Below, in pieces: positions 1,625 to 63,657 of a DNA stretch of 64,000 nucleotides. Both the position numbers and the translations under genes were made by a program. Location of the stretch: NCBI GenBank assembly GCA_052034235.1, contig JBPOIT010000007.1, positions 22,234-86,233 on the forward strand. The letters are read 5' to 3'. Below the pieces are notes generated by a model. That model had not been told where the DNA came from. It saw only the letters and a program-made list of their open reading frames with translations, and ran no database searches. Every line of letters starts with the position of its first letter. The first letter of the stretch is position 1. Origin of the DNA: Candidatus Levyibacteriota bacterium. GTDB taxonomy: Bacteria > Patescibacteriota > Microgenomatia > Levybacterales > UBA12049.

Positions 1625-1626
1625 GT

Positions 1627-45722: not shown

Positions 45723-45844
45723 CGTGAGTCCGGTGATCCGAACCGTCTCGTGGTTGGTAACTCCGACAACGGTGGTGCGGCGAACGTCAACTGGGATCAT
45801 CCTGACAACTCGAACGACAACGTGGGGTTCCGTGCTGCGGTAGT
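45723..45844 (+). repeat. DGR template repeat (TR)
   Basis: Adenine-rich at the variable codons (AAC/AAT). Differs from VR only at adenines. Lies in a 380-nt untranslated spacer upstream of avd/RT. The overlapping 144-aa ORF 45579-46013 is rejected. Confidence 0.9.
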
Positions 45845-45894
45845 ATTATCTTTAAGTGAAATACGGCCTGCTCTATCAAGGGTAGGCCTTATTT

Positions 45895-46272: not shown

Positions 46273-47295
46273 AACATTTACTCAAATCTTATCACATTGG
46301 AGAGCGTTTTTACAGCGTGGGATGAGTTTATTCAAGGCAAAAAGAAAAAAGATGACGTAATGGCTTTTAGAAGGTTTCTCGAGGATAATTTATTCGAACT
46401 TCATCAAAGCTTAAAAGCTAAGACATACCAACATGGTGGGTACAAATCTTTTTATATTAGAGATCCAAAAGTGCGCCATATTTCAAAAGCTTGTGTCAGA
46501 GATAGAGTCGTCCATCATCTCGTCAGTAATGTCTTAGAAAGAATTTTTGACCCTACATTTTATGTGCATTCCTATTCCTGCCGTAAAAACAAAGGAACTC
46601 ATAAAGCAATCGAATCATTTGTTAAGCTTGCCAGAAAAGCTAGCAAAAATAATACGTCACCTCTTTTTGTTCTTAAATGTGACGTAAAGAAGTTTTTTGC
46701 CAGCGTCGATCATGAAATATTATATAGACTACTGGATAGGAGAATTTTTGATGAAGATTTTTTGTGGTTATTGAGAGAAATAATTAATAGCTTTAGTATA
46801 GATGCTCAGGAAAGGGGTATGCCTATAGGGAATCTCACTTCTCAATTTTTCGCTAATATTTACCTGGATCCTTTTGACCGTTTCATTAAGCATGATCTTA
46901 AAATTGAATATTATATTCGCTATGCTGATGACTTCATAATCTTGTCAGACAATAAGGAATATTTAGAGAAGTTAATTGTCAATCTTGAACACTTTTTGGA
47001 ATTTGAGCTAAAGCTATTCCTTCACCCTCACAAAATATCAATTCGAGATTATTATTTAGGAATAGATTTTTTAGGCTATATCGTTTTTCCTAATTTTGTC
47101 TTACCCAGAACCAAAACGAAGAAGCGGCTTTTTAGGAAGATTCATAAAAAGGTGGAACTTTATAAGATGAGTAAAATTACAGCAGAATCCCTTAGCCAGT
47201 CAATTCAATCCTACCTTGGTTATCTTACTCATGCCAATGCGTACAAACTCTCTCAACAGCTGAAGAATCAAATTATATTTTGGCTAAACGACTAA
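46249..47295 (+). CDS. DGR-type reverse transcriptase
   Basis: RT motifs including YADDFII (motif 5) and the DGR-specific MPIGNLTSQFFANIYL (I/LGxxxSQ in place of QGxxxSP). 348 aa with no maturase or endonuclease domains. Confidence 0.9.
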   Translation: MKIMRVWHNIYSNLITLESVFTAWDEFIQGKKKKDDVMAFRRFLEDNLFELHQSLKAKTYQHGGYKSFYIRDPKVRHISKACVRDRVVHHLVSNVLERIFDPTFYVHSYSCRKNKGTHKAIESFVKLARKASKNNTSPLFVLKCDVKKFFASVDHEILYRLLDRRIFDEDFLWLLREIINSFSIDAQERGMPIGNLTSQFFANIYLDPFDRFIKHDLKIEYYIRYADDFIILSDNKEYLEKLIVNLEHFLEFELKLFLHPHKISIRDYYLGIDFLGYIVFPNFVLPRTKTKKRLFRKIHKKVELYKMSKITAESLSQSIQSYLGYLTHANAYKLSQQLKNQIIFWLND

Positions 47296-47507
47296 AACAT
47301 AAATAACTCTTTTGGCTCTACCTTCAGAGCCTTGGAGAGCTTATATATGTTGTCCAGGGAGACATTTTGCTCTCCTCTCTCCACCGCTCCAATATAGGTG
47401 CGGTGAATACTGGCCTTAAACCCCAATGCTTCCTGAGAAAGCTTTGCGGCTTTTCTAACCTCCCTTAGTCTGTTTCCGAATTTTTTTCGGATATTAGTTT
47501 GTCCCAT
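47292..47507 (-). CDS. XRE-family HTH transcriptional regulator
   Basis: 71 aa; LSQEALGFKASIHRTYIGAVERGEQNVSLDNIYKLSKAL is a classic Cro/C1-type HTH. Confidence 0.6.
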   Translation of the reverse strand: MGQTNIRKKFGNRLREVRKAAKLSQEALGFKASIHRTYIGAVERGEQNVSLDNIYKLSKALKVEPKELFMF

Positions 47508-47585
47508 AATGACGCTGCAATCAAGGTTAGTATTTTGTAGTCAATAACTCTACAGACGATAACTAGCATTTCTGCTATAATTAGC

Positions 47586-47930
47586 TTGAAAATGAAAAGA
47601 AATTTAATTATCGAACAATATGAATTCGGGACAATTGAGGGAATAAATGATGAAGCTTTACTCAAAGCGATTAATAAGGCTCAATCAAGGTTTTTTACCA
47701 AGCAGGATGGGTTTTTATATGCGGAAGTACTTAAAGAAGGTGACAAGTGGATAAAACTTACTTACTGGAACAGCCGAGATGAAGCTATGGGGGCACAAAA
47801 AGCATTTTTAGATCATTCTAGCTGCTTACCTTTTGTTCAGATGATTTCTCCTGGTAATGTGAAGATATTGTACCTAGAACGAATTTTGAGATATAAGAGC
47901 AAAGCTTTTGGTGAAAGGAGGTTTAGTTAA
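47586..47930 (+). CDS. hypothetical protein (possibly ABM/dimeric alpha-beta-barrel-like)
   Basis: 114-aa ORF divergent from the XRE gene. Confidence 0.25.
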   Translation: MKMKRNLIIEQYEFGTIEGINDEALLKAINKAQSRFFTKQDGFLYAEVLKEGDKWIKLTYWNSRDEAMGAQKAFLDHSSCLPFVQMISPGNVKILYLERILRYKSKAFGERRFS

Positions 47931-48114
47931 TCAGTTTATCCAAGAAAATGTTCAGGAAATGTTTTATGTTATTACCTTAAAAATTGAGAATAAAGGCAAA
48001 GAAACTAAAAACAGTTCTCGAATCCGCTTAACGAATAACTCCCATAGATATAATCTGGGGGTTATTAATAGTCTATGTAATGCCTTAGTTTTCTGATAAA
48101 ATGCAGTTATATCT

Positions 48115-50388
48115 ATGAAATTATCAGACAATGAAAAACGAGACATTATTAAGTATCTTGAATCTGGGAAACCCCTTCCAGATAAATACAGATTCCTCCT
48201 CTTCGATGATGACCATGAAGTAGAACTGGTTTGGAATGGTAAAACAAACGAAATCTCCAATATTGTACTACCTTTTCAGACGATAGAACATATTGATGAA
48301 CCAAGAAGCGATGAATCAATCCGGATGCAGAAATCCCTTTTTGATATGTCTGGCCGTCAGATTGAAGGTTGGACAAATAAGCTCATTTGGGGCGATAACA
48401 AACTAATTCTGTCCTCACTCAAAAATGGCCCTCTTAGAAAAGAAATAGAAGCTCAAGGCGGTATAAAACTTATTTATATTGATCCTCCTTTTGATGTAGG
48501 CGCAGACTTTTCTATTGATGTTCAAATTGGTGAGGAAGAATTTATAAAGAAACCATCAGTAATTGAAGAAGTTGCATTTAGAGATACATGGGGTAAAGGT
48601 GTAGATAGTTTTATTGCAATGATTTATGAACGATTGCAATTAATGCACGATCTTTTAGCTGAAGATGGAAGTATTTATATTCACTGCGATGGTCGCGTGA
48701 GCGCATATCTTAAGCTTTGTCTTGATGAAATATTTGGAGCAGACAATAAAATGGCAGAGATAATTTGGAAAAGAAGTTCTGCTCATAATGATAGTAATTC
48801 TTATGGCACGATACATGACACAATTCATTTTTATACTAAAACAGATTTGAATATTTGGAATCCCACCTACGTTGAATACGACCAAGATTATATTGACCAA
48901 TATTATAGATATAAAGATCCTGATGGAAGAAAATGGTTGTCTCGCGACTGTAGTGCTCCTGGAGGGCGAGGGCCGAGATATGAATGGAATGGACATATTC
49001 GAAACTGGCGATACACCAAAGTTAAGATGCAAGAGCTTCATGATGCTGGGAAATTATTTTATACATCAAATGGTATACCTCGCTTTAAGCAGTATATGGA
49101 TGAGATGCCAGGTGTGCCCTCACAAAGTTTATGGATAGACAAAAGTGTTCAAGCAATTAATTCGTGGCATCAAGAAAATGAAGCTTACCCCACACAAAAA
49201 CCAGAAGGACTTTTAGAGCGAATTATAAAAGCGAGTAGTAATGAAAATGATATTGTGGCTGACTTTTTTGTTGGATCGGGAACAACATTGGCTGTCGCAG
49301 AAAAATTAGGTAGAAAATGGATAGGTTCTGATTTAGGAAGATTTTCAATGCACACTACCCGCAAAAGAATGATTAAAGTTCAAAGAGAGCTTAAGAAAGC
49401 AGGTAAAGATTTCAGAGCTTTTGAGATCCTAAATTTAGGAAAATATGAACGGGAACAGTTTATTGGGAAAAACGACAATCTAAGAGAAGAAGACCGACAA
49501 TTGCAGCAGCAAAAGAAAGAACAAGAATTTATAAAATTGATTCTATCAGCTTACAAAGCAGAGGCTGTTGATTCATTTTTAACTATGGTTGGTAAAAAAA
49601 GAGATCGTCTTGTAGCAATCGGACCAATAAATTTTCCTGTTACTGCAGAATTCTTACATCAAGTCGTTACAGAGTGTATAGAGAAGAATATCACTAAAGT
49701 AGATGTGCTTGGGTTTGATTGGGAAATGGGTCTTGAAGTAGATCAATTTAAGAATCAAGGAGTTGATCTTCAGCTTAGAGTAATTCCAAGAGAAGTATTT
49801 GATAAGCGAGCAGTTGAAAAAGGACAAGTTAAATTTTATGAGGTAGCTTTTATTGAAGTTAAGCCCATTATAAAAAAGAATACTATCGCGGTTCAGTTAA
49901 TGGATTTTAGCGTCTTTTATAACCAAGATGATTCAGGTGAAATCGAAGAAAAATTAAAATCAGGTGGTTCTAAAGTTGTTGTCGAGAACGGTCAAGTGAT
50001 TAAGCTTAGTAAAGATAAAGGATCTGAGATTGTTAATCGAGAAGTATTAACAACTAAATGGACAGATTGGGTTGATTATTGGGCTGTTGATTTTAATTTT
50101 GAAAGTAAGAAAGAGTTCATTAGGAAAGCTAAAGATTTCGATATATCTCAACCAAAACTTGATGGTACCGAAGATCCAACACAAACAAAATTCCCTGAGT
50201 ATGAAGAATTATGGACTGGTAGTTATATTTTTGAAAATGAATGGCAATCATTTAGATCTCAAAAAGATAGAAATTTGGAATTAACTACAGTATTTAAAGA
50301 AGTCTCAAGAGGAACTTTAAAGATTGCAGTTAAAGTCGTTGATATTTTTGGTAACGATACAACAAAGGTGATTGAAGTTACAGTTTAA
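48115..50388 (+). CDS. mod: Type III restriction-modification system methyltransferase (Mod; N6-adenine/N4-cytosine, beta class)
   Basis: Motif IV LIYIDPPFD precedes motif I FFVGSGTTLAVAEKLGRKWIGSD (beta-class order). 757 aa, followed directly by a DEAH helicase-nuclease. Confidence 0.75.
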   Translation: MKLSDNEKRDIIKYLESGKPLPDKYRFLLFDDDHEVELVWNGKTNEISNIVLPFQTIEHIDEPRSDESIRMQKSLFDMSGRQIEGWTNKLIWGDNKLILSSLKNGPLRKEIEAQGGIKLIYIDPPFDVGADFSIDVQIGEEEFIKKPSVIEEVAFRDTWGKGVDSFIAMIYERLQLMHDLLAEDGSIYIHCDGRVSAYLKLCLDEIFGADNKMAEIIWKRSSAHNDSNSYGTIHDTIHFYTKTDLNIWNPTYVEYDQDYIDQYYRYKDPDGRKWLSRDCSAPGGRGPRYEWNGHIRNWRYTKVKMQELHDAGKLFYTSNGIPRFKQYMDEMPGVPSQSLWIDKSVQAINSWHQENEAYPTQKPEGLLERIIKASSNENDIVADFFVGSGTTLAVAEKLGRKWIGSDLGRFSMHTTRKRMIKVQRELKKAGKDFRAFEILNLGKYEREQFIGKNDNLREEDRQLQQQKKEQEFIKLILSAYKAEAVDSFLTMVGKKRDRLVAIGPINFPVTAEFLHQVVTECIEKNITKVDVLGFDWEMGLEVDQFKNQGVDLQLRVIPREVFDKRAVEKGQVKFYEVAFIEVKPIIKKNTIAVQLMDFSVFYNQDDSGEIEEKLKSGGSKVVVENGQVIKLSKDKGSEIVNREVLTTKWTDWVDYWAVDFNFESKKEFIRKAKDFDISQPKLDGTEDPTQTKFPEYEELWTGSYIFENEWQSFRSQKDRNLELTTVFKEVSRGTLKIAVKVVDIFGNDTTKVIEVTV

Positions 50389-50393
50389 AAATT

Positions 50394-53078
50394 ATGGCAT
50401 TACATAAAGATTTTCCAATCGATCCATACGCAATTTTAGATCCAAATATAAGATGGTTTCCTGCTGTCGAGGATTTAAGAGAAAAAGGTGGATATGAGCG
50501 GCTTTTGCCTCCATTTATTTCGGAACTTCGAAAAAGAGTAAAAGAATGGAGGGACAACGACTATGCTGAAGCTAGTGAAACTTCAAAAGCGCTTTTAAAT
50601 TGGTGGTTTAAAGAAGAACATACGATTTTTGATAAAAATGGCATGTCCACTCCATTTAAGTATTATTTCTCTCAAAGAGAAGCCGTTGAAACAGTTATCT
50701 GGTTATACGATGTTGCAAAGGTTAAAAGTAAATACGATTTAATTAAATTCGATTCATTGGGAAGAGTCAGTCCTAATATGTTTAATGAGGATTGGTTAAG
50801 ATTCGTTATTAAAATGGCAACAGGAAGCGGGAAAACAAAAGTAATGAGTTTGATTTTGGCATGGGCATACTTCCACAAACTCTATGAGAAGGACTCAAAA
50901 TTAGCTCGTAATTTCTTACTTATAACTCCAAATATTATCGTACTTGAAAGAATAAAAACAGACTTCTTAGGTTTAAAGATATTTCATGAAGATCCAATAC
51001 TACCTGATAATGGATATTCCGGACAGAATTGGCAAGACGATTTTCAATTGACCTTACACTTACAAGATGAGATCGGTTCTATATCTCCTACCGGGAATAT
51101 ATTTTTAACAAATATTCATCGAGTTTTTGAAGGCAATATAGAAGAATCTAGTCCCGATGATGAGGATAGTACAACATATTTTCTTGGTCCAAAACCTGTT
51201 AACAAGACAAATGATTCAAGAGTAGATTTAAGTTCGATTATTCGTGAAATCGATGAATTAATAGTTATTAATGACGAAGCTCACCACATTCATGACGAGA
51301 AGTTAGCTTGGTTTAAATCAATTCAGGACATTCACAATAAACTTAAATTAAAAAATGGAGAACTAGCACTACAGATTGATGTAACTGCCACACCTAAACA
51401 TAACAATGGCGCAATTTTTGTTCAAGTAGTATCTGACTATCCGCTTGTAGAAGCGATTCACCAACGAGTTGTAAAAAATCCCGTATTGCCAGATCAAGCT
51501 AGCAGAGCAAAGCTAAAAGAGAATCAAAGCTCTCTATTTACTGAGAAATACGAAGATTACATAAACTTGGGAGTTATCGAGTGGAAAAAGACCTATGAAG
51601 AATTATTAAAAGCTGGTAAAAAGTCGATTTTATTTATAATGACAGATGACACAAAAAACTGTGATGAGGTGGCTGAATATTTGGAGAGAACATATGCTGA
51701 ATTTAAGGGTGCGGTTTTGACAATTCACACAAATAAAAGCGGTGAAATATCAGAGACTATTCAAGGAAAAGATGAAAAAGAATTGGTAAAGCTTAGGGAA
51801 CAAGCAAATGCAATAGATAGTAACGAAAGTCCTTTTAAAGCGATTATTTCTGTATTGATGCTTAAAGAGGGTTGGGATGTAAAAAACGTTACAACAATTG
51901 TTGGGTTGAGAGCATATTCCTCTACTGCAAATATATTGCCGGAGCAAACATTAGGTCGAGGTTTAAGAAGGATGTTTTTTGGAAGAGATGATCTGGCAGA
52001 GTACGTAAGCATTATTGGTACGCCTGCATTTATGGATTTCGTTGAGTCCATTAAAGGAGAAGGTGTTATTTTGGAAAAGCGCGCAATGGATATAGGAGCA
52101 AAGCCTATTACTCCGGTTGTTATTGAAGTTGATAAAGAAAATGTTAAGAAAGATATTGAAAAACTCGATATTGAACTGCCTATTCTTACTCCAAGAATTC
52201 AGAGAGAGTACAAAAATCTCTCAAAGCTAGATGTTTCAAGCTTTCCTCATAAAAAAATGCCGGTAAAACAATTTAGTGATAAGGAGAAAAAGGAAATAAT
52301 TTTTAAAGAAGTTATCGCGGACAAGCTTCACCACACAACTGTTTTAGATACAAATATTGAACCTAGTTATCAAAGTGCCGTTGGGTTTTTTGCTCAAACG
52401 ATAATGAGAGAACTGCGGCTATTTGGCTGCTACGATATTTTATTTGGACAGGTAAAAGAGTTTGTGAGTAATTACTTATTCGAGACTGCAGTAAATTTGG
52501 ATGATTTAAATATTCTTCGCAATTTATCTGAGCCTGAAGTAACGAAAACCATAACAGAAGTATTCAAAAAGGAAATTAACGATCTCACAATCGAAGATAA
52601 AGGGGATGCTGAGATAAAAAATTACATAAAAATCAGTAATTGTAGGCCATTTGTTGTTAACGACAACGCTTATCTCTTACCGAAGAAGAGCATTTTTAAT
52701 AAAATTGTTGGCGATAGTCATTTTGAGCTTGAATTTGCTGATTTTCTTGAAAGTTGTGAGGACATATTGTCATTTGCTAAAAACTACTTTGAAATACATT
52801 TCAAAATTGATTATAAAAACTCCGATGGATCAATCTCTTATTACTATCCTGATTTCTTTGTAAAAAAAGATAATAAAACTGTTTATATTATCGAAACAAA
52901 AGGCAGAGAAGATCTTGATGATCCAATTAAGATAGCTCGTTTGGCTCAGTGGTGCAATGATGCAAATGGAAGACAAAGCAAGATACAGTACGAAATGTTA
53001 TATGTTAAGGAAGATGAATGGAATAAATATAAACCGAAAGATTTTACCGAGTTGGTTAAAATTTACAAATCTGAATAA
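50394..53078 (+). CDS. res: Type III restriction enzyme Res subunit (SF2 helicase + nuclease)
   Basis: Walker A MATGSGKTKV, DEAH box VINDEAHHIHD, helicase motif VI-like region; 894 aa. C-terminal IIETKGRED resembles a PD-(D/E)XK motif. Confidence 0.75.
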   Translation: MALHKDFPIDPYAILDPNIRWFPAVEDLREKGGYERLLPPFISELRKRVKEWRDNDYAEASETSKALLNWWFKEEHTIFDKNGMSTPFKYYFSQREAVETVIWLYDVAKVKSKYDLIKFDSLGRVSPNMFNEDWLRFVIKMATGSGKTKVMSLILAWAYFHKLYEKDSKLARNFLLITPNIIVLERIKTDFLGLKIFHEDPILPDNGYSGQNWQDDFQLTLHLQDEIGSISPTGNIFLTNIHRVFEGNIEESSPDDEDSTTYFLGPKPVNKTNDSRVDLSSIIREIDELIVINDEAHHIHDEKLAWFKSIQDIHNKLKLKNGELALQIDVTATPKHNNGAIFVQVVSDYPLVEAIHQRVVKNPVLPDQASRAKLKENQSSLFTEKYEDYINLGVIEWKKTYEELLKAGKKSILFIMTDDTKNCDEVAEYLERTYAEFKGAVLTIHTNKSGEISETIQGKDEKELVKLREQANAIDSNESPFKAIISVLMLKEGWDVKNVTTIVGLRAYSSTANILPEQTLGRGLRRMFFGRDDLAEYVSIIGTPAFMDFVESIKGEGVILEKRAMDIGAKPITPVVIEVDKENVKKDIEKLDIELPILTPRIQREYKNLSKLDVSSFPHKKMPVKQFSDKEKKEIIFKEVIADKLHHTTVLDTNIEPSYQSAVGFFAQTIMRELRLFGCYDILFGQVKEFVSNYLFETAVNLDDLNILRNLSEPEVTKTITEVFKKEINDLTIEDKGDAEIKNYIKISNCRPFVVNDNAYLLPKKSIFNKIVGDSHFELEFADFLESCEDILSFAKNYFEIHFKIDYKNSDGSISYYYPDFFVKKDNKTVYIIETKGREDLDDPIKIARLAQWCNDANGRQSKIQYEMLYVKEDEWNKYKPKDFTELVKIYKSE

Positions 53079-53746
53079 TGATAAAACTATCACGATCAAA
53101 AATTGAGTTACTTTTCGACTGCCCTCGTTGCTTTTGGTTTTATGCCGGAAAAAGCATTGCCCGCCCGTTTGGTGCTCCTTACACAATAAATAATGCGGTA
53201 GATTTTATCCTTAAAAAGGAATTTGATGTCCATAGAGCCAATGGAACTGCTCACTATCTAATTGTAAGGGATGGAATTGATGCAATTCCATATATGCACG
53301 AAGATATTGATAAATGGAGACACAACTTTACAGGTATTCAATTTCACCACCAAGAGACAGATTTCCTTGTTTTTGGAGCAGTTGATGATATATGGGTCGA
53401 TTCCCAGGGAAATCTCATTGTGGTGGATTACAAAGCCTCTGGGGCTAAAGAAGGAGAGCTTTACGATAGTTATAAAAGACAGATGGAAATTTACCAATGG
53501 ATACTAAGACAAAATGGATTTAAGGTGCAAAATCGTGGGTATTTCGTATATTGCCGAGTAAATAAAGAGAATGGGTTTCCAGAGGGTAAACTTAGCTTCG
53601 ATATTAAACTTCAGCCATATGATGGTGATGATAGTTGGGTTACAAATAAGATCTTCGAAGCAAAAAAGATATTGGATGGAAAAATGCCTGATAGCTCCGA
53701 GGCGTGCACATATTGCAAGTATGTTAAATCTCTTCAGATCGATTAA
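53078..53746 (+). CDS. Cas4-like PD-(D/E)XK nuclease with N- and C-terminal Cys pairs
   Basis: CPRCFW near the N-terminus and CTYCKY at the C-terminus flank VDD...VVDYKAS (D...D-x-K). Start overlaps the res stop. Confidence 0.5.
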   Translation: MIKLSRSKIELLFDCPRCFWFYAGKSIARPFGAPYTINNAVDFILKKEFDVHRANGTAHYLIVRDGIDAIPYMHEDIDKWRHNFTGIQFHHQETDFLVFGAVDDIWVDSQGNLIVVDYKASGAKEGELYDSYKRQMEIYQWILRQNGFKVQNRGYFVYCRVNKENGFPEGKLSFDIKLQPYDGDDSWVTNKIFEAKKILDGKMPDSSEACTYCKYVKSLQID

Positions 53747-53772
53747 AGCTATAAAAAGGAAAGGAAACCCTC

Positions 53773-56700
53773 ATGCCAAGTAGGGTTGATTACTCTATAC
53801 CTCCTCCGACTAATTGGGAGGCTTTTGAGAGCCTCTGCCGTGATTTATGGGCAGAAATTTGGAATGATACCAATACTCAAAAGAATGGAAGACAAAGCCA
53901 ACCTCAACATGGAGTCGATGTTTATGGTGAACCGAAAAAAAGTCAGTGGGCAGGCTTACAGGCTAAAGAGAAAGATCAACTTCCAGCAAAAACTCTTACG
54001 ATCACTGAGCTTCGGGCTGAAGTTAAAAAGGCAAAGAGTTTTACACCCGCACTAAAAGAGTATGTCGTAGCAACCACTGGTCCCAGAGATGTAAATGTTC
54101 AAGAGGAAGCAAGAAAAATAACAGAGGAAAATCGTAAGAGCGGGTTATTTGATGTGGTTGTTTATAGCTGGGAAGATATTGAGGCACTTCTTAAGAAATA
54201 TCAGAATGTTTATAGACTCCACTATCCTCAACATTTCCCTGATTTAGAAGGTGTAGAATCCCTAACTAAGCAAGTATTAGATAAACAAGATGAAAATTTT
54301 GAAAAGTCTTCAGAAGAAATTAGTGGTCTGAAATTTGAAGTAGGTAGTGGATTTAAACATTTAGCTGACCAAATGTCTGTAGGTGGCGATGTTACCCAAG
54401 AACATCAAGTAGAGATAGACTATGCAAGAGATTTAATTGATAAGCATAAACCTGCTTCAGCTTTAAGTTATTTAGAACCGATAAAAGATCGTATCTGGAA
54501 TCAGACAACTCCAAGTGTGAAATTCCGACTTCTCACTAATATCGCTGCAGCAAAACTTGAATTGGGCGAGGAGAAAGATGCTGCTCAATTATTCATTGAA
54601 GCATTGCAATACAACCCCGATGAGGAAAAAGCATTATGTAATGTTGCACTTGCATATATTCTCCTTGATAAGCCTGATAAAGCTGAAGAATATGTCAAAA
54701 AAGTATTACTAAAAAATCAAGCAAGTGGGCGTGGATATTCAATGCTAATTCAGATTCGTTCTGACGCTTCAGTCCCTGTCGAAAAAATTATTAGTGAGAT
54801 ACCTTCTGAATATCACGACCTACCGGTGGTTGCCTACGCATTAGGAACGGTGTGCAGGAGAAGTCAGCACTTCAAAGAAGCACTTGAATGGTTTAAAAAG
54901 GCTGGGACTGCAAAAAATAAGGAACCAGAATATTTAGTTTCTCAAGCAACTACTCTCCTTGCATCTATTTCCACAAACATGCACTTGTCTTTCTCTAAAA
55001 GATTGACAAAGGATGAGCATGAAAAAGTAATAGAGGCTGTCGGTTTGTTTGAGCAAGCTTGGGAAGAAATAAAATCACACGAAGATAAAAGTCTAAAAAT
55101 TGAGTGTCTAACCAATAAAGGTATTTCATACATGTTACTTGGTGATACTCAAAAAGCAGCGATAAGTTTTGACGATGCTCTTGTTATGGAGCCGGATAAC
55201 CCAAGCTACATTTTCAACAGAGCATTTATTGATTATGAATCGGGTAAGAAGGATCTTGCTTTAGAGAGAATAAAAAAAATAGCTGAAAACCCCGAACTTC
55301 CAGCCGCCATTTTAATTGGTGATATATATCTGAGTAGCAGCAACAGTAATCCAGAAATATTACGCAAAGAGGCTCTTCCCGTAGTTGAAAAGTACATAAA
55401 ACTTAATCCACCACCTTTCTTAAGAGGTGCAGCTGAAAGATTATTAATTCAGCTGAATGTAGCATTAAACCAACTAAAGGAAGCTGCTGAAATCGCTGAT
55501 GAGTTAGTAAAACGAAATCCTAAGGATATAAATTCGCTTGTGAGTCAGTCCAGAATATACAGATTACTTAAGGATGAAAAAAAAGCTGATGAAAGCCTTT
55601 CAGCAGCAGAAAAACTTGTAGACAAAGATACGACATATTTTGATCTGCTAGCTTTAGCTGATGAATATAATTTCGTAGGTAAATTTGGTAAAGCATCAAC
55701 TTTTTATGAGAGGGTTACGGATATTAAAGTCGATAGTGAAATAACTAGGCGATTGATCGATACATATCTTAAATCAGGAAATAATCAAAAAGCGCTTTCT
55801 GTTTGTAAATCGATAAGAGAGAATCAAGGCTTAATCAGAGAGGTTATTGAACTTGAAGCCACACTTCATGAAGATATTGGAGATCTCGAAAATGCAACAA
55901 AATTGTGCGAAGAATATCTTAAGGAAAACCCAAATGACGAGAGAGTAAAGTTACACCTTGCTGCTATTAACTTCAGGAACCAAAAACTAAATCAGGTTGA
56001 TGAATTTTTAAAAACACCTTTTGATTATGAAAACTTATCTTTAAGGTATCGCATTCAGTATGCTCAACTGTTAGGAATTAGAGGATTTAATAAAGAAGCA
56101 ATAAATGTAATGTATGAAACGAGACGAAAATATTTCGATCAAAGTGAAGCACACTTACAATATATCACCACGCTCTTCAGAACCGAAGAGAGAGATGATA
56201 AATGGATTCATCCGGATGCAATTTCTGAAGGAACCGCCGCATTGTTAGAAGACAAAAATGGTACGAAAGTTTGGTATCTCATAGAAGATAGAGCCGATGC
56301 AGATTTTGCCAAAAATGAACTGAAGCCTCAACATTCCCTTGCCCAGAGAATGATCGGAAAAAAGATCGGTGATGAAGTTGAATTAGTATCCTCTGGTCCT
56401 CAAAAAAAGTACGGAAAAGTTGTAGAGATAAAAAGCAAATATATTTACGCTTTGCATAACAGCATGAATTCTTATCAAAAAATGTTTCCGGAAGCTGATG
56501 GACTATATGAAATTGATTTAAAAAGTGGAGAAACTGGAGAAATCGAAAAAAAAGATCTGGAAATACTTTTTAAGCAAGTAGATCAACAACACGAACGTTA
56601 TTCTAAAGTGATGAAACTGTATACAGAAGGGCATCTGACAGTTGGAGCTTTATCTAAGATGTTGAGCAGGAATGAGGTTGAAGCTTGGGGTTTATTAACA

Positions 56701-57702
56701 AGTCAGGAAGAACCAGGATTAAAATGCTGTATTGGCGATGTTAATTTAAGAAGAAGCGCACAAACAAGCCTAAATACCAATCCAAAACCCAAGATAGTTA
56801 TTGATGTTCTAGCTCTTCTTACGATTCATGGTTTGGAAGGCGCAGATATTGTAGTGAAACATTATGGAAAATTCCTAATCTCTCAGTCCACGATTGATGT
56901 TTTTAATGAGTTAGTGACCAATTGTAAGGGAATGCAGGCAAAAGGATTTATGAGTGTAGGTAAACAAGGCGATCAATATGTAAAAGAAGAAATTACTGCA
57001 GATCAACTAAAGAAAAATTCAGAATATCTCAAGGGTATTTTGGCGTGGATTAAAAAGAATTGTGTAATTACTCCTTGCCATGAAGCATTAAAACTAGATG
57101 CAGATAAGAGAGAAGAGTTATATAAACTTTTTGGTATTTCATCTATCGACAGTATTTTAATTGCTAAGCAGGAAGATGCACTTCTTTATTCAGATGATGA
57201 AAGATTACGATCATTTGCTCTTGGTTCGTATAGTGTCCAGGGAGTATGGACACAAGCTGTTATAGAGAATTTACTTAATTTGGGTATTATCAGTAACGAA
57301 AAATATCAAGATTTCGTAATACGCTTGGTCAATTCTAATTATGTTTTTACGAGTATTAACTCTGATACTTTGATTGAAGCTACAAAACAGTCTCAGTGGA
57401 AGCCGGATAGAAATTTTATGAAAATGGTAAGTTTGTTGAATGGAAAAAAGTGTGATGACATACCTGCAATAATTGTCGTCTCTGACTATATTCAAAAACT
57501 AATTAATCAACCAATATTTATTGATGATCCTAAAAACATATGCTTTGTTGTTTTGGATAATGCTATTAAAGATAGGCTTAATAAGCCTGAATTTCTTCAG
57601 AGGTTGGAGATAAGACTTAATAAACTATTTATGCTGTCTCCGACAAAACTTTCTGAGGCTAAACTAATACTAGCTGCGTGGTTAAAAACTCAGATTGTGT
57701 AA
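53773..57702 (+). CDS. 1309-aa protein: N-terminal Mrr/restriction-endonuclease-like domain + very long TPR/helical-repeat region (candidate defence protein)
   Basis: N-terminal HGVDVYGE...AGLQAKEKD fits a D...(Q)xK PD-(D/E)XK pattern. Residues ~200-1000 are TPR-like (repeated A/L/Y/N/P helical hairpins). No P-loop was found. Confidence 0.45.
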   Translation: MPSRVDYSIPPPTNWEAFESLCRDLWAEIWNDTNTQKNGRQSQPQHGVDVYGEPKKSQWAGLQAKEKDQLPAKTLTITELRAEVKKAKSFTPALKEYVVATTGPRDVNVQEEARKITEENRKSGLFDVVVYSWEDIEALLKKYQNVYRLHYPQHFPDLEGVESLTKQVLDKQDENFEKSSEEISGLKFEVGSGFKHLADQMSVGGDVTQEHQVEIDYARDLIDKHKPASALSYLEPIKDRIWNQTTPSVKFRLLTNIAAAKLELGEEKDAAQLFIEALQYNPDEEKALCNVALAYILLDKPDKAEEYVKKVLLKNQASGRGYSMLIQIRSDASVPVEKIISEIPSEYHDLPVVAYALGTVCRRSQHFKEALEWFKKAGTAKNKEPEYLVSQATTLLASISTNMHLSFSKRLTKDEHEKVIEAVGLFEQAWEEIKSHEDKSLKIECLTNKGISYMLLGDTQKAAISFDDALVMEPDNPSYIFNRAFIDYESGKKDLALERIKKIAENPELPAAILIGDIYLSSSNSNPEILRKEALPVVEKYIKLNPPPFLRGAAERLLIQLNVALNQLKEAAEIADELVKRNPKDINSLVSQSRIYRLLKDEKKADESLSAAEKLVDKDTTYFDLLALADEYNFVGKFGKASTFYERVTDIKVDSEITRRLIDTYLKSGNNQKALSVCKSIRENQGLIREVIELEATLHEDIGDLENATKLCEEYLKENPNDERVKLHLAAINFRNQKLNQVDEFLKTPFDYENLSLRYRIQYAQLLGIRGFNKEAINVMYETRRKYFDQSEAHLQYITTLFRTEERDDKWIHPDAISEGTAALLEDKNGTKVWYLIEDRADADFAKNELKPQHSLAQRMIGKKIGDEVELVSSGPQKKYGKVVEIKSKYIYALHNSMNSYQKMFPEADGLYEIDLKSGETGEIEKKDLEILFKQVDQQHERYSKVMKLYTEGHLTVGALSKMLSRNEVEAWGLLTSQEEPGLKCCIGDVNLRRSAQTSLNTNPKPKIVIDVLALLTIHGLEGADIVVKHYGKFLISQSTIDVFNELVTNCKGMQAKGFMSVGKQGDQYVKEEITADQLKKNSEYLKGILAWIKKNCVITPCHEALKLDADKREELYKLFGISSIDSILIAKQEDALLYSDDERLRSFALGSYSVQGVWTQAVIENLLNLGIISNEKYQDFVIRLVNSNYVFTSINSDTLIEATKQSQWKPDRNFMKMVSLLNGKKCDDIPAIIVVSDYIQKLINQPIFIDDPKNICFVVLDNAIKDRLNKPEFLQRLEIRLNKLFMLSPTKLSEAKLILAAWLKTQIV

Positions 57703-57712
57703 AAATTAATTT

Positions 57713-58552
57713 ATGAATGACGAACAACAATTTAAACATAGATATTCACTACTAAAAATAGATGTAACTGATACTCTTCCTATTGCTGATTTTTTTGATG
57801 ACGATCATTATGTTGGATTTCAAAACAGCGACAATCTTGAAGAACTTTTAGATTTAGCGGTAGTTGGCTTTTGGAAGTTAAACCCAACAATGAAAACTTA
57901 TGAAGATTGGGAAACAAAAGCAGAAGATGGTGGTTTTGATTTTCAAATTACTGCAGGCAAACGGATTATTTTTAGATCAAGCTTATTGTTAGCTGATCCA
58001 AGAATTATGGGGGCAATTTATCTTGTTCGAGATTTCCATAGTGGTCAAGTACGCAAAGGCGATGGATTTCCGTACTTAGAACATCCTTTAGAAGTTGGAT
58101 ACCGTTTATGGAGAGATAAATTTCCGGGCGATGTTGTTGCTGCAGGATTTTGCCACGATCTTTTAGAAGATACTAAATGTACTGAGGATGAAATTAAAGA
58201 AAAATGCGGTGACGAGGTGTTGCGAATAGTCAAAGCTGTATCTAACGATGAGTCATTATCTGATAAGAAAGACTGGGAAAAGAAAAAAGAGAAATATATT
58301 ATGTCTGTCAAAAATGGTGGAGAAAAAGCAATAGCAGTAAGTATAGTAGATAAAATCAGTAATCTTTATTCTTTTTTTGATCAGTATGAGAAAGAAGGGC
58401 CAGCACTTTGGAAAAAGTTTAATAGGGGAAAAGACAAAAAGGTGTGGTTTGAAAAAGAAGTTATGAGCATGGCACGAAGCAACTGGAAACATCCATTACT
58501 TGATGAATTAGAAAAATTGATTTCTAAACTTGAGCAGACTCAGGCGGGCTAA
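57713..58552 (+). CDS. HD-domain (p)ppGpp-hydrolase-like protein (RelA/SpoT HD family, small alarmone hydrolase-like)
   Basis: HSGQVRKGDGFPYLEHPLEVG...AAGFCHDLLEDT matches the RelA/SpoT hydrolase HD signature (H...HD...D). Confidence 0.6.
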   Translation: MNDEQQFKHRYSLLKIDVTDTLPIADFFDDDHYVGFQNSDNLEELLDLAVVGFWKLNPTMKTYEDWETKAEDGGFDFQITAGKRIIFRSSLLLADPRIMGAIYLVRDFHSGQVRKGDGFPYLEHPLEVGYRLWRDKFPGDVVAAGFCHDLLEDTKCTEDEIKEKCGDEVLRIVKAVSNDESLSDKKDWEKKKEKYIMSVKNGGEKAIAVSIVDKISNLYSFFDQYEKEGPALWKKFNRGKDKKVWFEKEVMSMARSNWKHPLLDELEKLISKLEQTQAG

Positions 58553-58559
58553 TTATAAA

Positions 58560-60125
58560 ATGAATATGATAATTACTCCACGCCGAAGAAAATTAAAACT
58601 TATATTAAAGAGGTTATTAAGGTTAAAGATAGTTTTTACAGTTTTTGCTCTCCTGCTTATTTTAGATGTCGTATTCACAAAAGCATTGGGAGATAAATAT
58701 GAAGATAGGTTTCCGGTCATATTCTGGACATCTCTTCCTTTTATGCTCTATGTTCTTCTCGGATTAAGTTTCCCAATAGTCTTAAGAGTGGAAAGAAGTA
58801 GAAAATACTATTTGATCCTCTGGTTATTATTACTGTCCATTATTCTTTTTGGCATATATTGGATCTCAGATGAGAAATTACATTCCTGGTTTTTACTAAG
58901 TAATGTTTTAAGCTATTTTGTTGTCAGTTTATGGGTAGCCGTTATTATTCTCTTACTTTTACAGATTCCAAAAATAAAGAAAGTTCACTTCTCTACACTT
59001 ATTTCAAAAACTTTTTCTGTTGTAGCAAATATTAAAAAAAGATTAACTGTAAATACCTTATTGTTGATCCTTATTCTTTCAGCTGTGGTTTACTACGGGA
59101 ATGCTCAACTGCAAAAAGTAAATAGTAGGCTCGATACAATTGAGAATAGACTTGGGGGACCGAAAAAGATTGCATGCAATGAAAAAGACACAATTAATAA
59201 AGTAAGACGTTCTGTTGTGCGCATTGTAGGTGGTGAATCAGAAGGATCAGGTTTTGCAGTGAAAACAGGCGGATTAATTCTTACCAATTTCCATGTAATT
59301 GAATTTGAACCCGCTCCAAAAGTCGTTTTGCCGGACAATACATTTGAAACAGCTGAGGTTATTATGGCTGACAAGAACGCTGATCTGGCAATAATAAAAA
59401 TCAGCAAAGATCTTCCTGTAATTTCTTGGGGTGAACCTACTGAGCTTGAACCGGCAGAAGAACTTTTAGCAATTGGATTTCCTTTGGGTGGCTCACTTTC
59501 AGGGGAATCATCTGTAAATAAAGGATCTCTAGCAGGTAGACGAAAATCAAAAGATGTTGGAGTTGAATATTTACAGACTGATATTACATTAACTCCTGGA
59601 GTAAGCGGTGGTCCTATGGTTAATGTATGTGGAGACGTAATGGGAATAAATACTGCAGGGCTGTCAGGGCTAGGATTAGCTATCTCTGCTGATTCCGCAA
59701 AGCAGAAATGGCTTGAAATGGCGACATCTGACGATTCACTTAAGGATATTAAAAAAATCTCATTCAATGATACTGAAAGTGCTGAATTTGCTGTTGCAAC
59801 TTTCTACAATTATTTAAAAGTAAGAAAGCTTGATAAAGCATTTGAACTACTTTCAGACAATTTTAAGAATGGGCACGGTTTCGATTATTGGAAAGGTGGA
59901 TATACAACACTTCTTGATACAACTGTAATTAAGATTGAGGATGATAAAACTAAAAAGGATCGTGTAACAATTAAGCTCTCTACTAAGGATATGGTTGATG
60001 ACGAGATTGTATATAAATATTTTGAGGGCTATTGGGATGCAAAAAATATTAACGGAAAATGGAGGCTTTGGGACCCTGAAATTAAAGAAGTGAAAGATCC
60101 AGGCTATCTCTGGTTCTATGAATAA
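58560..60125 (+). CDS. membrane-anchored trypsin-like (S1) serine protease with C-terminal extra domain
   Basis: N-terminal TM helices; catalytic triad context TNFHV (His), DLAIIKI (Asp), GVSGGPMVN (Ser). The C-terminal ~130 aa are unassigned. Confidence 0.6.
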   Translation: MNMIITPRRRKLKLILKRLLRLKIVFTVFALLLILDVVFTKALGDKYEDRFPVIFWTSLPFMLYVLLGLSFPIVLRVERSRKYYLILWLLLLSIILFGIYWISDEKLHSWFLLSNVLSYFVVSLWVAVIILLLLQIPKIKKVHFSTLISKTFSVVANIKKRLTVNTLLLILILSAVVYYGNAQLQKVNSRLDTIENRLGGPKKIACNEKDTINKVRRSVVRIVGGESEGSGFAVKTGGLILTNFHVIEFEPAPKVVLPDNTFETAEVIMADKNADLAIIKISKDLPVISWGEPTELEPAEELLAIGFPLGGSLSGESSVNKGSLAGRRKSKDVGVEYLQTDITLTPGVSGGPMVNVCGDVMGINTAGLSGLGLAISADSAKQKWLEMATSDDSLKDIKKISFNDTESAEFAVATFYNYLKVRKLDKAFELLSDNFKNGHGFDYWKGGYTTLLDTTVIKIEDDKTKKDRVTIKLSTKDMVDDEIVYKYFEGYWDAKNINGKWRLWDPEIKEVKDPGYLWFYE

Positions 60126-60133
60126 TACGAAGC

Positions 60134-60823
60134 TTATTCCTGAGGTTTTATAAGCTCTTCTGAATCATTTTTAGGACTGTTGACTGCAGTAGATACTCTG
60201 GTTGCTTTCATTTGATCGCTTGGATAAGGTTTTAAGAGTGGTAATAGTCGTTCCGGTTCTATAACATCAGGATCTAGCCAAAAATCCTCATCTTCTTTAC
60301 TGAGTATTACCGGCATTCTTTGATGGACAGGAGCAACTACATCATTTGGTTCAGTTGTAATAATTGTGTAGCTGTAAATTTCTTGTCCATCCTTCGGATC
60401 TTTCCAGACATCATATAAGCCTGCAAAGGCAAATAATGATTCGTCTTTCAGTTGAAAATAATAAGGAATACTTGGTTTTGTCGATTTATCCCATTCATAA
60501 AATCCTGAAGCCGGTATCAAACATCTTTGAAAGCGAAGTGGTTTTTTATACGACGGTTTACTCTCAATTCCTTCAGCGCGAGCATTAATTGTTTTATAAC
60601 TCATGCTAGAGTCTTTTGCCCAGTGGGGAATTAAGCCCCAGAGCATGAATTGAATTGAGTTTGGACTATGCCGAGTAATTGTAGGCTGCATTGTACCAGG
60701 CGCGATATTATAATGAGATTTCAGATTCGGTACTTCATTCTCGATCTCGAAGCGCTTGTATACATCCCTGGCACTGCTTATTGAGAAGCCATATCTGCCA
60801 CACATAATACTGTTATTATACAC
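60134..60823 (-). CDS. SOS-response-associated peptidase (SRAP/YedK/HMCES family) abasic-site processing protein
   Basis: N-terminal MCGRY with catalytic Cys2, 229 aa; divergent from the LexA-like gene. Confidence 0.8.
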   Translation of the reverse strand: MYNNSIMCGRYGFSISSARDVYKRFEIENEVPNLKSHYNIAPGTMQPTITRHSPNSIQFMLWGLIPHWAKDSSMSYKTINARAEGIESKPSYKKPLRFQRCLIPASGFYEWDKSTKPSIPYYFQLKDESLFAFAGLYDVWKDPKDGQEIYSYTIITTEPNDVVAPVHQRMPVILSKEDEDFWLDPDVIEPERLLPLLKPYPSDQMKATRVSTAVNSPKNDSEELIKPQE

Positions 60824-60840
60824 TATGTGCCTCTTGAAAA

Positions 60841-60856
60841 GTAAACAAATGTTTAT
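60841..60856. promoter_or_regulatory. palindromic operator GTAAACA-AA-TGTTTAT (putative LexA/repressor box) in SRAP-repressor divergent promoter region
   Basis: One of three copies of GTAAACA-N2-TGTTTAC. It lies 18 nt upstream of the SRAP start and 40 nt upstream of the repressor start. Confidence 0.5.
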
Positions 60857-60896
60857 TATACTTAAGAGCGTGGTTTTATTAAATAATTATTAACTT

Positions 60897-61484
60897 ATGC
60901 GTACTCCAAGTATCAAAACTGAAATTGCGATTAAAAAAATTAGACAGTTCCACCAAAAGCAGCGAAGAGTGCCTACTTTAGAAGAGATGTCAAAACTCTT
61001 TAAATTTGCTTCCAAGAGATCTGCTTTCCTTCTAGTGGAAAGATTGGTTGAAGCTGGGTTAATTGAGAAAGACATTAAAGGTCGCATAACAATCAAACGG
61101 ATGTTTCTCCCTTTACCTGTTTTAGGTTCGATTAGAGCAGGATTTCCGCAAGACGAGGAAGAACAACTTATTGATACTCTTTCATTTGACGAGTACTTAG
61201 TAGATCGTCCAGAGTCTTCTTATTTACTCAAAGTTATTGGAGATTCAATGGAAGATGCAGGGCTTCGCGAGGGAGATATTGTAATTGTCGATAAGAGAAA
61301 AGAACCGAAAGAAAATGATATTGTAGTCGCAAATGTTGATGACCAATTTACTCTTAAATATTTTCGAACGATAGATGGTAAGGTTTGTTTAGTTCCTGGA
61401 AACAATAAATATAAGACTATTTACCCAAAAGATAGTTTGAGCATACAAGGTGTTATTATTAGCACAGTGCGTAGGTATCGTTAA
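60897..61484 (+). CDS. lexA: LexA-type S24 autopeptidase repressor (host-like LexA or prophage CI analogue)
   Basis: N-terminal LexA-type winged HTH (VPTLEEMSKLFKFASKRSAFLLVERLVEAGLIEK). Cleavage-site region VLGSIRAGFP, catalytic GDSM (Ser) and VANVDDQFTLKYF (Lys). Confidence 0.75.
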   Translation: MRTPSIKTEIAIKKIRQFHQKQRRVPTLEEMSKLFKFASKRSAFLLVERLVEAGLIEKDIKGRITIKRMFLPLPVLGSIRAGFPQDEEEQLIDTLSFDEYLVDRPESSYLLKVIGDSMEDAGLREGDIVIVDKRKEPKENDIVVANVDDQFTLKYFRTIDGKVCLVPGNNKYKTIYPKDSLSIQGVIISTVRRYR

Positions 61485-61487
61485 TAT

Positions 61488-62156
61488 ATGTTTATTTATC
61501 TTGATGAAAGTGGAACTCTTACAGAAAGTAATGGCAAATATTTTGTCATAGGCACTTATACTGTTGGTGATCCTCGGAAAATTACTAAAGCTTTCAGAAA
61601 ATGGCAGAAAACTAAGTTCCCCAAGAAATTGAGAAGGCAAGCTGAGTTAAAGTTTAACGATTCTCACATAGATGACAAGCTTAGACTTAAAACACTTCAA
61701 TATTTCGCTAAACAAGACATCCGGATCTTTTATACTTATCTTCAGAAAAAGAATATTCCAAAGGAATATTACAAAAAAGGTAAGGTAACTGAGACTGGAT
61801 TACTCTATACCGAAATCGTCAGAGCAACTCTTGAATTATATATGCCAGTTACTGATAGCCAACTTACTATCGTGAGGGATCAAAGGACTTTAAAAGGAGT
61901 TAGTGTAAGTAAATTTGACGAGATTCTTCGAGCGAGTTTATTGCCTAAGCTTCCCGCAAAGGTAGTTTTGGAAGTACAAGCTGTTGATTCTACCAGTAAT
62001 CCGCTTATTCAAGTTTCTGATTGGGTTTGTGGCGCTCTTGCTAGATATTATGAAGGAAAGCCATCAGGAGAAGAGTTTTATACTGTTCTTAAAGGGAATA
62101 TCGTTCAGGAGAAAGAACTGTTTTCAGAGAAATGGACAAAGACTTGGGAGAAGTAG
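61488..62156 (+). CDS. DUF3800-family protein
   Basis: N-terminal MFIYLDESGT signature of DUF3800. Confidence 0.5.
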   Translation: MFIYLDESGTLTESNGKYFVIGTYTVGDPRKITKAFRKWQKTKFPKKLRRQAELKFNDSHIDDKLRLKTLQYFAKQDIRIFYTYLQKKNIPKEYYKKGKVTETGLLYTEIVRATLELYMPVTDSQLTIVRDQRTLKGVSVSKFDEILRASLLPKLPAKVVLEVQAVDSTSNPLIQVSDWVCGALARYYEGKPSGEEFYTVLKGNIVQEKELFSEKWTKTWEK

Positions 62157-62348
62157 ATACAAAAAAGACCTGCGTATGCAGATCTGTTTTGTTAGAGCGG
62201 CGGTGCTATAAATGTTGTTCCTAGACTCGTACTGAATGAACCATTCAGGAGCATCTAGGCATATATAGCGTATTATTACCAGCTCCATGAATAATATACC
62301 AAATCAGGGAGAGTTTGTCAAGGGTAAATGGAGAGTTCTAGCCTCAAA

Positions 62349-63619: not shown

Positions 63620-63657
63620 GACTTAGAAATCCCCGCATTCATCAGACAGCGTAATTA
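63620..63657 (+). repeat. ftsZ 3'-end repeat, copy 3 (putative attR; encodes ...DLEIPAFIRQRN-stop)
   Basis: gacttagaaatccccgcattcatcagacagcgtaattaa matches copy 2 at 20 of 21 positions in gacttaRaaatccccgcatt, then in agacag, and encodes an FtsZ C-terminal peptide variant. Confidence 0.75.

Follow-up and report, generated by a model that had tools for sequence, protein, structure and literature searches.

Known-type defence modules in two apparently exchangeable slots around a conserved solo Cas4-like gene in a prophage of a Candidatus Levyibacteriota bacterium

We analysed a stretch of 64,000 nucleotides (the window: positions 22,234 to 86,233 of contig JBPOIT010000007.1, assembly GCA_052034235.1) from a Candidatus Levyibacteriota bacterium, and in particular the run of defence-type genes that begins at position 47292 of the window. 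We consider it probable, at roughly 75%, that this interval makes up the cargo arm of a tailed prophage of ~52 kb, integrated in the genome of a bacterium that belongs to the candidate phyla radiation (CPR), and that it forms a mosaic of independent defence modules of known types, which occupy two exchangeable slots flanking a conserved gene for a solo Cas4-like nuclease. The reading builds on the observed gene content, domain architecture, conservation of catalytic residues, modular exchange between related loci and prophage and CPR context. In the open reading frame (ORF) map a gene on the minus strand for a 71-aa helix-turn-helix (HTH) protein is followed, all on the plus strand, by a 114-aa ORF, mod and res genes of Type III restriction-modification (R-M), the gene for the 222-aa Cas4-like nuclease and a gene for a protein of 1309 aa. 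The five genes that a preliminary description, made from the sequence alone, had named (regulator, methyltransferase, helicase-nuclease, Cas4-like nuclease and giant protein) were all recovered in this map at the same positions, and a motif check found the motifs ascribed to them. The extent given there, 47292-57702, covers these genes and falls short at its right edge, as the co-directional run continues past 57702 to 60125 with a 279-aa HD_4 protein and then a 531-aa trypsin-like protease.

The evidence for exchange comes from about a dozen loci that we inspected around homologues of the Cas4-like gene. Among these, a sister prophage (L036, L037 and the IMG/VR viral contig L042) has its backbone in common with the window at 70-84% DNA identity and other cargo in both slots. 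Homology to L036 covers window positions 45058-47903 (reverse transcriptase, HTH gene and small ORF, 72% DNA identity), 53025-53692 (the Cas4-like gene, which at 84% has the highest DNA identity to L036 and to L056), 60134-61484 (SRAP and S24 genes, 70%) and 62348-62669 (integrase, 77%). In blastn this homology is lost between 48157 and 53025, which defines a variable slot 1 (48158..53024, plus strand) upstream of the Cas4-like gene, and lost again between 53692 and 60134, which defines a variable slot 2 (53693..60133, plus strand), here holding the gene for the 1309-aa protein and those for the HD hydrolase and the trypsin-like protease. The corresponding cargo of L036 (positions 3702-9250, also in L037 and L042) consists of EcoRI_methylase and GmrSD_N/HNH genes in slot 1 and of Thoeris-like genes (ThsB_TIR, ThsA_Macro and ThsB_TIR) followed by a NUDIX gene in slot 2.

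The other loci show further combinations. Upstream of the Cas4-like gene we found, for instance, a Type III R-M system 64-65% identical to that of the window in L051 (with DUF2254 and then a trypsin-like protease downstream), a PLD-SNF2 helicase and an Eco57I/MmeI-type methylase in L040, L043 and L048 (with an SNase, a trypsin-like protease, or a small ORF and an SMC-like ATPase downstream), a methylase, two ORFs without match and an SMC/AAA_21 ATPase in L045 (with a 174-aa ORF and an integrase downstream), a Gabija-like pair (AAA_15/OLD-TOPRIM and UvrD helicase) in the viral contig L046 at 5737-10696 (with a 179-aa ORF without family match downstream) and a Fic gene in L038 (with a 287-aa gene without family match downstream). 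In L043 (positions 9935-11979, also in L044) the trypsin-like protease directly follows the Cas4-like gene; this looks like an empty slot 2 and suggests that the two genes form a conserved pair. Locus L056 (4099-17320), which has primase, HTH_17 and integrase genes, is an integrative element distinct from the prophage; it carries the Cas4-like gene (82%), the gene for the 1309-aa protein (91%), the HD_4 gene (81%), an additional gene of 322 aa and the protease gene (66%), preceded by a Type III R-M system that is only 26-28% identical to that of the window. Homologues of the 1309-aa protein at 80-82% and 67% identity are encoded without Cas4-like, HD or protease neighbours. Because the related loci keep and exchange their genes in this way, the Type III R-M system and the gene for the 1309-aa protein appear to be cassettes independent of each other, with the Cas4-like gene as a conserved anchor that separates the variable slots, and the regulator gene and 114-aa ORF to their left appear to be prophage backbone. 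Defence hotspots of prophages, e.g. those of P2/P4-like elements, have conserved flanks around interchangeable defence cassettes, and the loci compared here are alike in that related prophages keep the flanking genes and swap the cassettes; they are unlike in the host clade, which is CPR, and in the anchors, which are a Cas4-like nuclease and a trypsin-like protease.

The anchor gene itself (53078..53746, plus strand), lying between the two slots, encodes a predicted solo PD-(D/E)XK nuclease (PDDEXK_1, E 7e-13) with Cas4-like motifs: CxxC at residues 15-18 and 210-213, DxK at 117-119 and QxxxY at 135-139. At least 8000 homologues were found, with identities of 80-89% in Levy-, Woese- and Daviesbacteria, and residues C15, C18, C210, C213, D103, D104, D117, K119, Q135 and Y139 are invariant in the homologues. 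A PD-(D/E)XK nuclease with CxxC at both ends had been described before and is confirmed; the Cas4/AddB-like arrangement attributed to it holds in part, since there are four cysteines but in a 2+2 arrangement (CxxC...CxxC), whereas the canonical Cas4/AddB pattern has one N-terminal and three C-terminal cysteines. The protein lies under the Cas4 equivalog cut-off (34.5 bits against TIGR00372 versus 65 required), and its match to Pfam Cas_Cas4 (1.4e-5) is weaker than that to PDDEXK_1. No cas family was seen among the ORFs scanned from 36.5 to 63.4 kb or among the called neighbours in the related loci, and a profile of the protein searched against PDB sequences gave nothing at E<=0.01. It resembles the solo Cas4 and Cas4-like PF12705 nucleases (Hudaiberdiev et al. 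2017, BMC Evol Biol 17:232) in the RecB-like PD-(D/E)xK fold, the QxxxY motif and the four conserved cysteines, and the solo Cas4 genes of that study are likewise abundant in CPR genomes and adjoin R-M genes. It is unlike them in the spacing of its cysteines, in falling under the equivalog cut-off, in the lack of nearby cas genes and in its place as an anchor between two slots. The protein could process DNA ends as an accessory nuclease, serve the phage in recombination or be a mere landmark of the hotspot; one possible form of an accessory role is the processing or degradation of cleaved DNA in hosts without RecBCD/AddAB.

In the window slot 1 is filled by the R-M genes. Mod (48115..50388, plus strand, 757 aa) is a predicted beta-class N6A/N4C methyltransferase (N6_N4_Mtase, 8.5e-44; PADLOC MTase_III, 2e-109) in which DPPF (motif IV, residues 123-126) precedes FxGxG (motif I, residues 385-389), as is the order in this class. 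Directly downstream, after a gap of 5 nt, res (50394..53078, plus strand, 894 aa) encodes a DEAH helicase of superfamily 2 (SF2) that ends in a PD-(D/E)xK nuclease (ResIII, 1.6e-16; PADLOC REase_III, 6e-22), with the motifs GSGKT at 144, DEAH at 294, TATP at 331, QxxGRxxR at 518 and a C-terminal PD...ExK at 819-836, and with weak matches to RE_endonuc and TnsA-like families. These results bear out the earlier recognition of a beta-class methyltransferase, by DPPF ahead of FxGxG, and of a DEAH helicase-nuclease of the Type III kind, and support the assignment of the pair to Type III R-M. With the EcoP15I/EcoP1I type the pair shares the order of mod before res, the beta-class Mod and a Res that joins SF2 DEAH motifs to a PD-(D/E)xK nuclease at its C-terminus; it differs in that the best NCBIfam match of its Res, to the BPTD_3080 restriction endonuclease (8.8e-83, 278.8 bits), is far under the cut-off of 800. 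Res is 65% identical to Res of L051, and the two Mod proteins are 64% identical except over a central block in which they fail to align (residues 247-328, window 48853-49098). This block is presumed to be the target recognition domain, and the divergence has the pattern expected if that domain had been swapped for one of different specificity. From knowledge of the family, Mod would methylate one strand of a short asymmetric site in host and prophage DNA, and Mod and Res together, with the DEAH motor and the C-terminal nuclease, would cut incoming DNA that is unmethylated.

The 1309-aa protein of slot 2 (53773..57702, plus strand) had been described as a nuclease head with ~1000 aa of TPR-like repeats, outside any named family and a candidate for a new kind of effector-sensor. 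We found instead a succession of an Mrr-like restriction endonuclease (REase) head, TPR repeats, a GreA/GreB C-terminal (GreA/B-C) domain, a PIN domain and a helical tail, an architecture that has been published as the TPR-GreAB-C-PIN (TGP) system. The TPR array, presumed to be a sensor or scaffold, spans only residues ~215-790 (54415..56142, plus strand; TPR_19 at 3.3e-20, TPR_14, TPR_2 and others between residues 252 and 779), and the two domains behind it had been overlooked. The GreA/B-C-like domain (residues ~815-890; 56215..56442, plus strand) is supported by a match of PF01272 to the excised segment that stays below threshold (1.1e-4, 22.5 bits versus 26.9; GreA_GreB match over residues 815-887), by a profile of the C-terminal 515 residues, built from 22 homologues, that finds E. 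coli GreA (1grj, E 0.0016) over the SPIARGLIGK region, and by an AlphaFold model of the C-terminal region (pLDDT 88.8) that in Foldseek matches the C-domains of GreA, GreB, Gfh1 and Rnk with a probability of 1.00 and a root-mean-square deviation of ~2 A over 74-77 residues. The PIN domain (residues 1009-1149; 56797..57219, plus strand) is of the PF20698 type (E 2.7e-30, 105.9 bits versus a cut-off of 27.8), is matched in Foldseek by VapC4 (5h4g, probability 1.00) and by the PIN domains of HARP and SMG6, and has acidic residues conserved across the family (D1011, D1126 and D1142, and also D1042 and E1143).

The head (residues 1-155; 53773..54237, plus strand) is supported as an Mrr-like PD-(D/E)xK domain by conservation and by modelling. 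Residues E19, D49 and Q63-x-K65 are invariant or nearly so in the homologues, and an AF2 model (pLDDT 87.7) shows the alpha-beta-beta-beta-alpha-beta core of REases, with Avs4 (8dgf_A, probability 0.98), EcoO109I, Hjc, Cdn1, EcoT38I, NucS and Can2 as the best PDB matches in Foldseek. Searched against Pfam and PDB sequences, the N-domain of the window protein gave nothing meaningful (only spurious PPR and Big_3_3 matches); of 30 homologous N-domains scanned singly, 24 matched Mrr_cat (best 7.2e-6) and 21 matched Mrr_cat_2. The earlier reading of the N-terminus as an Mrr-like nuclease is upheld by the conserved residues, the Mrr_cat matches and the PD-(D/E)xK fold matches led by Avs4, and the nuclease fold that it called for was found by the model and Foldseek. 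Avs4 combines an N-terminal Mrr-like nuclease effector with a repeat sensor. The window protein shares the fold of this head, which is also present on NACHT, AAA_16 and other TPR proteins, and is unlike Avs4 in that it has no STAND ATPase and has TPR, GreA/B-C and PIN as its sensor and core.

In the study of Kaur, Iyer, Burroughs & Aravind 2021 (eLife 10:e70394; PMC8195603) the TGP proteins were defined by a constant TPR, GreA/B-C and PIN part that is preceded by one of ~13 effector heads, REase and HNH DNases included, and their genes were found to be mostly standalone. The Pfam description of PF20698 likewise reads as a PIN domain associated with the TPR-GreAB-C-PIN system. The window protein agrees with these proteins in the order of the core (TPR, GreA/B-C, PF20698 PIN) and in having a variable N-terminal effector, in a family that is mostly standalone and on mobile elements, and we noted no architectural difference; particular to the window copy are its place in a CPR prophage beside R-M and Cas4-like genes and a closest relative that is encoded together with an HD hydrolase and a protease. 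Searched with a profile of the constant core, 1.84 billion representatives yielded 2165 clusters (at 50% identity) at E<=1e-30 and 3306 at E<=1e-10, and 126 homologues are ~1300 aa long. The Mrr-like head is present in 68 of 107 full-length top representatives and other heads in the remaining 39, for which reading of the N-termini by eye suggests SIR2-, HD-, PNPase-, hydrolase- and GT-like types. Many relatives align only from residue 165-207 on because the heads differ. A scan of genomes found TGP relatives in Gammaproteobacteria, Ktedonosporobacter, Kuenenia, Poribacteria, Latescibacterota, Nostoc, Anabaena, CPR lineages and Methanolobus, and a tblastn search of 50,697 phage records gave one weak match of the N-domain, in a Salmonella record, and the TGP core in none. 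Judged by its sequence and models, the 1309-aa protein is a typical, intact member of the TGP family and not a new family.

One TGP protein has been studied experimentally. A 2024 preprint, which uses the name TGP, reports that Agp of E. coli ECOR25 protects with its partner Bab against T5 and that this defence is abolished when the GreA/B-C domain is mutated (bioRxiv 10.1101/2024.11.07.622273). Agp and the window protein have the TGP core in common, including conservation of a GreA 'SPxAxxLxGK'-like segment. They differ in that Agp has 1094 aa and an N-terminal amyloid (BASS11) motif which activates the separate membrane effector Bab, whereas the window protein has 1309 aa, a fused predicted Mrr-like DNase and no adjacent Bab-like gene. 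The family was predicted to dock on virus-hijacked RNA polymerase, where the PIN domain cuts the transcript and the N-terminal effector serves as a second line (PMC8195603). Following this published model, slot 2 would hold a single-gene TGP system in which the GreA/B-C domain would bind RNA polymerase at its secondary channel, takeover of transcription by a phage would be sensed by the TPR array and core, and the PIN RNase and/or the N-terminal Mrr-like DNase would be released, so that transcripts or DNA are destroyed and the infection is aborted.

Two further genes complete slot 2. The first (57713..58552, plus strand) encodes a protein of 279 aa of the RelA/SpoT type with the HD hydrolase only (HD_4, 8e-14; TIGR00691, 1.2e-16 over residues 102-220), with the HD dyad at residues 148-149, an N-terminal extension of ~100 aa and no synthetase domain. 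It resembles a small alarmone hydrolase and could hydrolyse alarmones, modulating or countering alarmone-based toxins. The second (58530..60125, plus strand; true start probably the ATG near 58560) encodes a membrane-anchored trypsin/HtrA-like serine protease of 531 aa (Trypsin_2, 6.9e-25) with transmembrane-like segments at residues 29-150 and an intact GVSGG at 357. This protease recurs as the right border of slot 2, with 39-41% identity to those of L048 and L051 and 66% to that of L056. The HD gene is found beside the TGP gene in L056 (81% identity) and is absent beside the more distant TGP homologues. A 300-aa gene downstream of the P0006 TGP was rejected as a relative of the HD gene (BLASTP E 3), and the 322-aa gene of L056 was rejected as a relative of either the HD or the protease gene (no match). 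Both genes of the window appear to be separate passengers that joined the TGP gene only recently, neither being a conserved TGP partner.

At the left end of the interval the 71-aa regulator gene (47292..47507, minus strand) is divergent from the cargo run and encodes an XRE/Cro-type HTH protein (HTH_3, 4e-15; PADLOC Control_protein, 3e-24). Its presence had been recognised before, among the defence genes; a role specific to this R-M system was not borne out, as the same gene stands beside a different R-M system in L036, with 79% aa identity at the same position, and the Type III homologue loci L051 and L056 carry HTH_17 regulators instead. A candidate role as C protein of this R-M system was rejected on these grounds, the gene being kept in L036 with another R-M system and not co-inherited. 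The 114-aa ORF (47586..47930, plus strand), the first gene of the plus-strand run, is 54% identical to a 111-aa ORF of L036, falls in the block of 72% DNA homology at 45058-47903 and gave zero family matches in Pfam, PADLOC and NCBIfam. Both genes would be prophage backbone and not R-M components.

The cluster lies between the reverse transcriptase of a diversity-generating retroelement (DGR) and the lysogeny and integrase module of a prophage of ~52 kb. Upstream of it are the phage structural genes (terminase, portal, major capsid and tape-measure), and between these and the island lie genes for a vWA protein, an AAA_5 (MoxR-like) protein and the reverse transcriptase. Downstream follows the lysogeny arm (60134..63371, mixed strands) with SRAP (minus), S24 LexA/CI-like, DUF3800 and tyrosine integrase (minus) genes in the same order as in L036. 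Because the structural genes and the DGR stand on one side and a repressor-like gene and the integrase on the other, the island lies inside an integrase-bounded prophage, as the preliminary description had proposed for this defence-type gene cluster, and a related element is listed among catalogued viral contigs. A candidate att core of 13 nt, AAATCCCCGCATT, was found on the plus strand at 63627..63639 with a second copy at 11243-11255; it is the sole exact repeat of at least 12 nt shared by 10.1-13.0 kb and 62.1-64.0 kb, and with ~0.08 such repeats expected by chance it is weak evidence. A scan for tRNA genes found none in the window, which rules out a tRNA gene of this stretch as the integration site, and a scan for promoters and terminators at 47.0-62.4 kb gave no excess over shuffled sequence and is uninformative on operon structure. 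The host flank (150-11091) is a dcw cluster with a murA fragment and genes for a Mur ligase, mraY, ftsW, murG, ftsA and ftsZ, plus a gene of the metallo-beta-lactamase fold. Among named relatives, those closest to FtsZ come from Patescibacteria (84%) and Levyibacteriota, which places this complete tailed prophage in a CPR host.

Some further features of this prophage were seen alongside. The SRAP (YedK-like, 2.5e-73), S24 LexA/CI-like and DUF3800 genes at 60134-62156 form a trio kept beside the integrase, here and in L036. A prophage-borne DNA methyltransferase gene (16176-17258; phrog_116, 8e-71) lies just upstream of the terminase and may serve self-protection or anti-restriction. The DGR (43269-47295, with the reverse transcriptase at 46249-47295) is bona fide: its variable repeat (45135-45256) is the C-terminus of the 666-aa AAA_5 protein, its template repeat lies at 45723-45844, and all ten mismatches between the two (10/10) fall at template adenines. 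Upstream of the DGR lies the vWA gene (40579-42837), and together the vWA and AAA_5 genes have the look of a prophage-borne MoxR-vWA conflict system whose C-terminus is diversified by the DGR.

The reading as a mosaic of independent modules has to be weighed against others, of which two concern the Cas4-like gene. Its ATG overlaps the stop codon of res (TAATG), in 8 of 12 distinct contexts (the window, L036, L040, L043, L045, L048, L051 and L056) the gene directly follows an R-M-type system that runs in the same direction, three of these systems being Type III, and the literature describes solo Cas4 genes adjoining R-M genes in CPR and DPANN genomes as well as UvrD-Cas4-like fusions with Type III R-M (PMC5704561). 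Mod, Res and the Cas4-like protein could accordingly be one three-gene restriction system, compatible with the modular view, in which the exonuclease would process or finish cleaved DNA or repair self-damage in hosts that may lack RecBCD/AddAB. We regard such a system as possible yet rather doubtful: the nuclease also follows the Gabija-like pair (L046), Fic (L038) or small ORFs (L054 and L047), it remains 82-89% identical while unrelated R-M types replace the upstream one, and the overlap is probably a by-product of the junction, because the DNA homologous to L036 already starts within res, 53 nt before its 3' end. The overlap, from which coupling to res had been deduced, is real, and specificity for this res is not supported by a gene that recurs after unrelated R-M, Gabija-like and Fic genes. 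The nuclease might also be a housekeeping exonuclease of the phage for recombination or replication, with no role in defence, beside which defence cassettes merely insert. It is conserved as prophage backbone, is present in viral contigs and in L040 near ParB-MTase and terminase genes, and has the very high sequence conservation that is typical of a core function; nevertheless we think this unlikely, as the gene is present outside phages too, in integrative elements and islands (L038, L054 and L056), and stands among defence-type genes, not in a replication module, in every context examined.

The remaining alternatives concern slot 2 and the element as a whole. The tight spacing of the TGP, HD hydrolase and protease genes (10 nt and ~0 nt) and the transfer of all three together in L056 would fit one multi-gene system, with the protease or an alarmone as signal for instance, but this is improbable given that both neighbours are missing beside the TGP homologues of 80-82% and 67% identity, that the protease occurs without TGP in L043, L048 and L051, that in L056 the 322-aa gene is inserted between the HD and protease genes, and that TGP genes are mostly standalone (PMC8195603). 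Even less probable is that the island is not prophage cargo and belongs to the host chromosome or to a genomic island of its own: the interval from 47.3 to 60.1 kb has no structural phage gene, the att evidence is weak and the same block occurs in the non-phage element L056, but the phage genes on both flanks speak against it and the whole order from the reverse transcriptase to the integrase is syntenic in L036 and in the IMG/VR viral contig. Hardly any weight is left for the 1309-aa protein as a new, unnamed nuclease and TPR effector-sensor family. The lack of a meaningful PADLOC v2 match and of a direct Pfam or PDB sequence match for the N-domain would fit it; against it stand the PF20698 match above the cut-off, the confirmed GreA/B-C and PIN folds, an architecture published in 2021 with REase heads and with one member validated since, and a core family of at least 2165 clusters with the same head in 68 of the 107 representatives.

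Several points nevertheless weigh against the mosaic of known-type modules that we prefer. The R-M system upstream of the Cas4-like gene in most of the contexts may reflect functional coupling rather than pure modularity, and the att repeat is just 13 nt long. The Foldseek E-values for the head of the TGP protein are marginal (best 3e-3, to Avs4), and the N-domain of the window gave no match to the Mrr_cat profile at E<=10. A check of the island with PADLOC v2, which does not include TGP, matched the R-M genes and gave for the 1309-aa protein a sole match that is weak and unrelated. Agp, the only validated TGP protein, signals by an amyloid motif to a separate effector, and its PIN activity is unproven because the PIN catalytic mutant was unstable (bioRxiv 10.1101/2024.11.07.622273). 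Finally, we infer every biochemical activity and defence phenotype of the window genes.

Genomes of CPR bacteria (Patescibacteria) are tiny and the organisms are not easily grown; to our knowledge they usually lack CRISPR. Defence systems borne by their prophages inform on the conflict between phage and host in a large and poorly known part of the bacterial tree. The giant protein that had been flagged is already covered by Pfam PF20698, and the window adds to this family a clean, intact TGP with a fused Mrr-like DNase head, an architecture predicted in the literature, which bears on whether the sensor model of docking at RNA polymerase extends beyond the amyloid-signalling Agp. We suggest, as a tentative and for now rather speculative idea, that the Cas4-like gene and the frequent membrane trypsin-like protease mark a hotspot, common to CPR phages and integrative elements, for exchange of defence cassettes, and that the nuclease is perhaps a common accessory of DNA-targeting defences (Type III and other R-M, GmrSD and Gabija-like systems). 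The part worth following is this Cas4-like nuclease, which recurs directly downstream of interchangeable R-M and other defence cassettes in CPR mobile elements.

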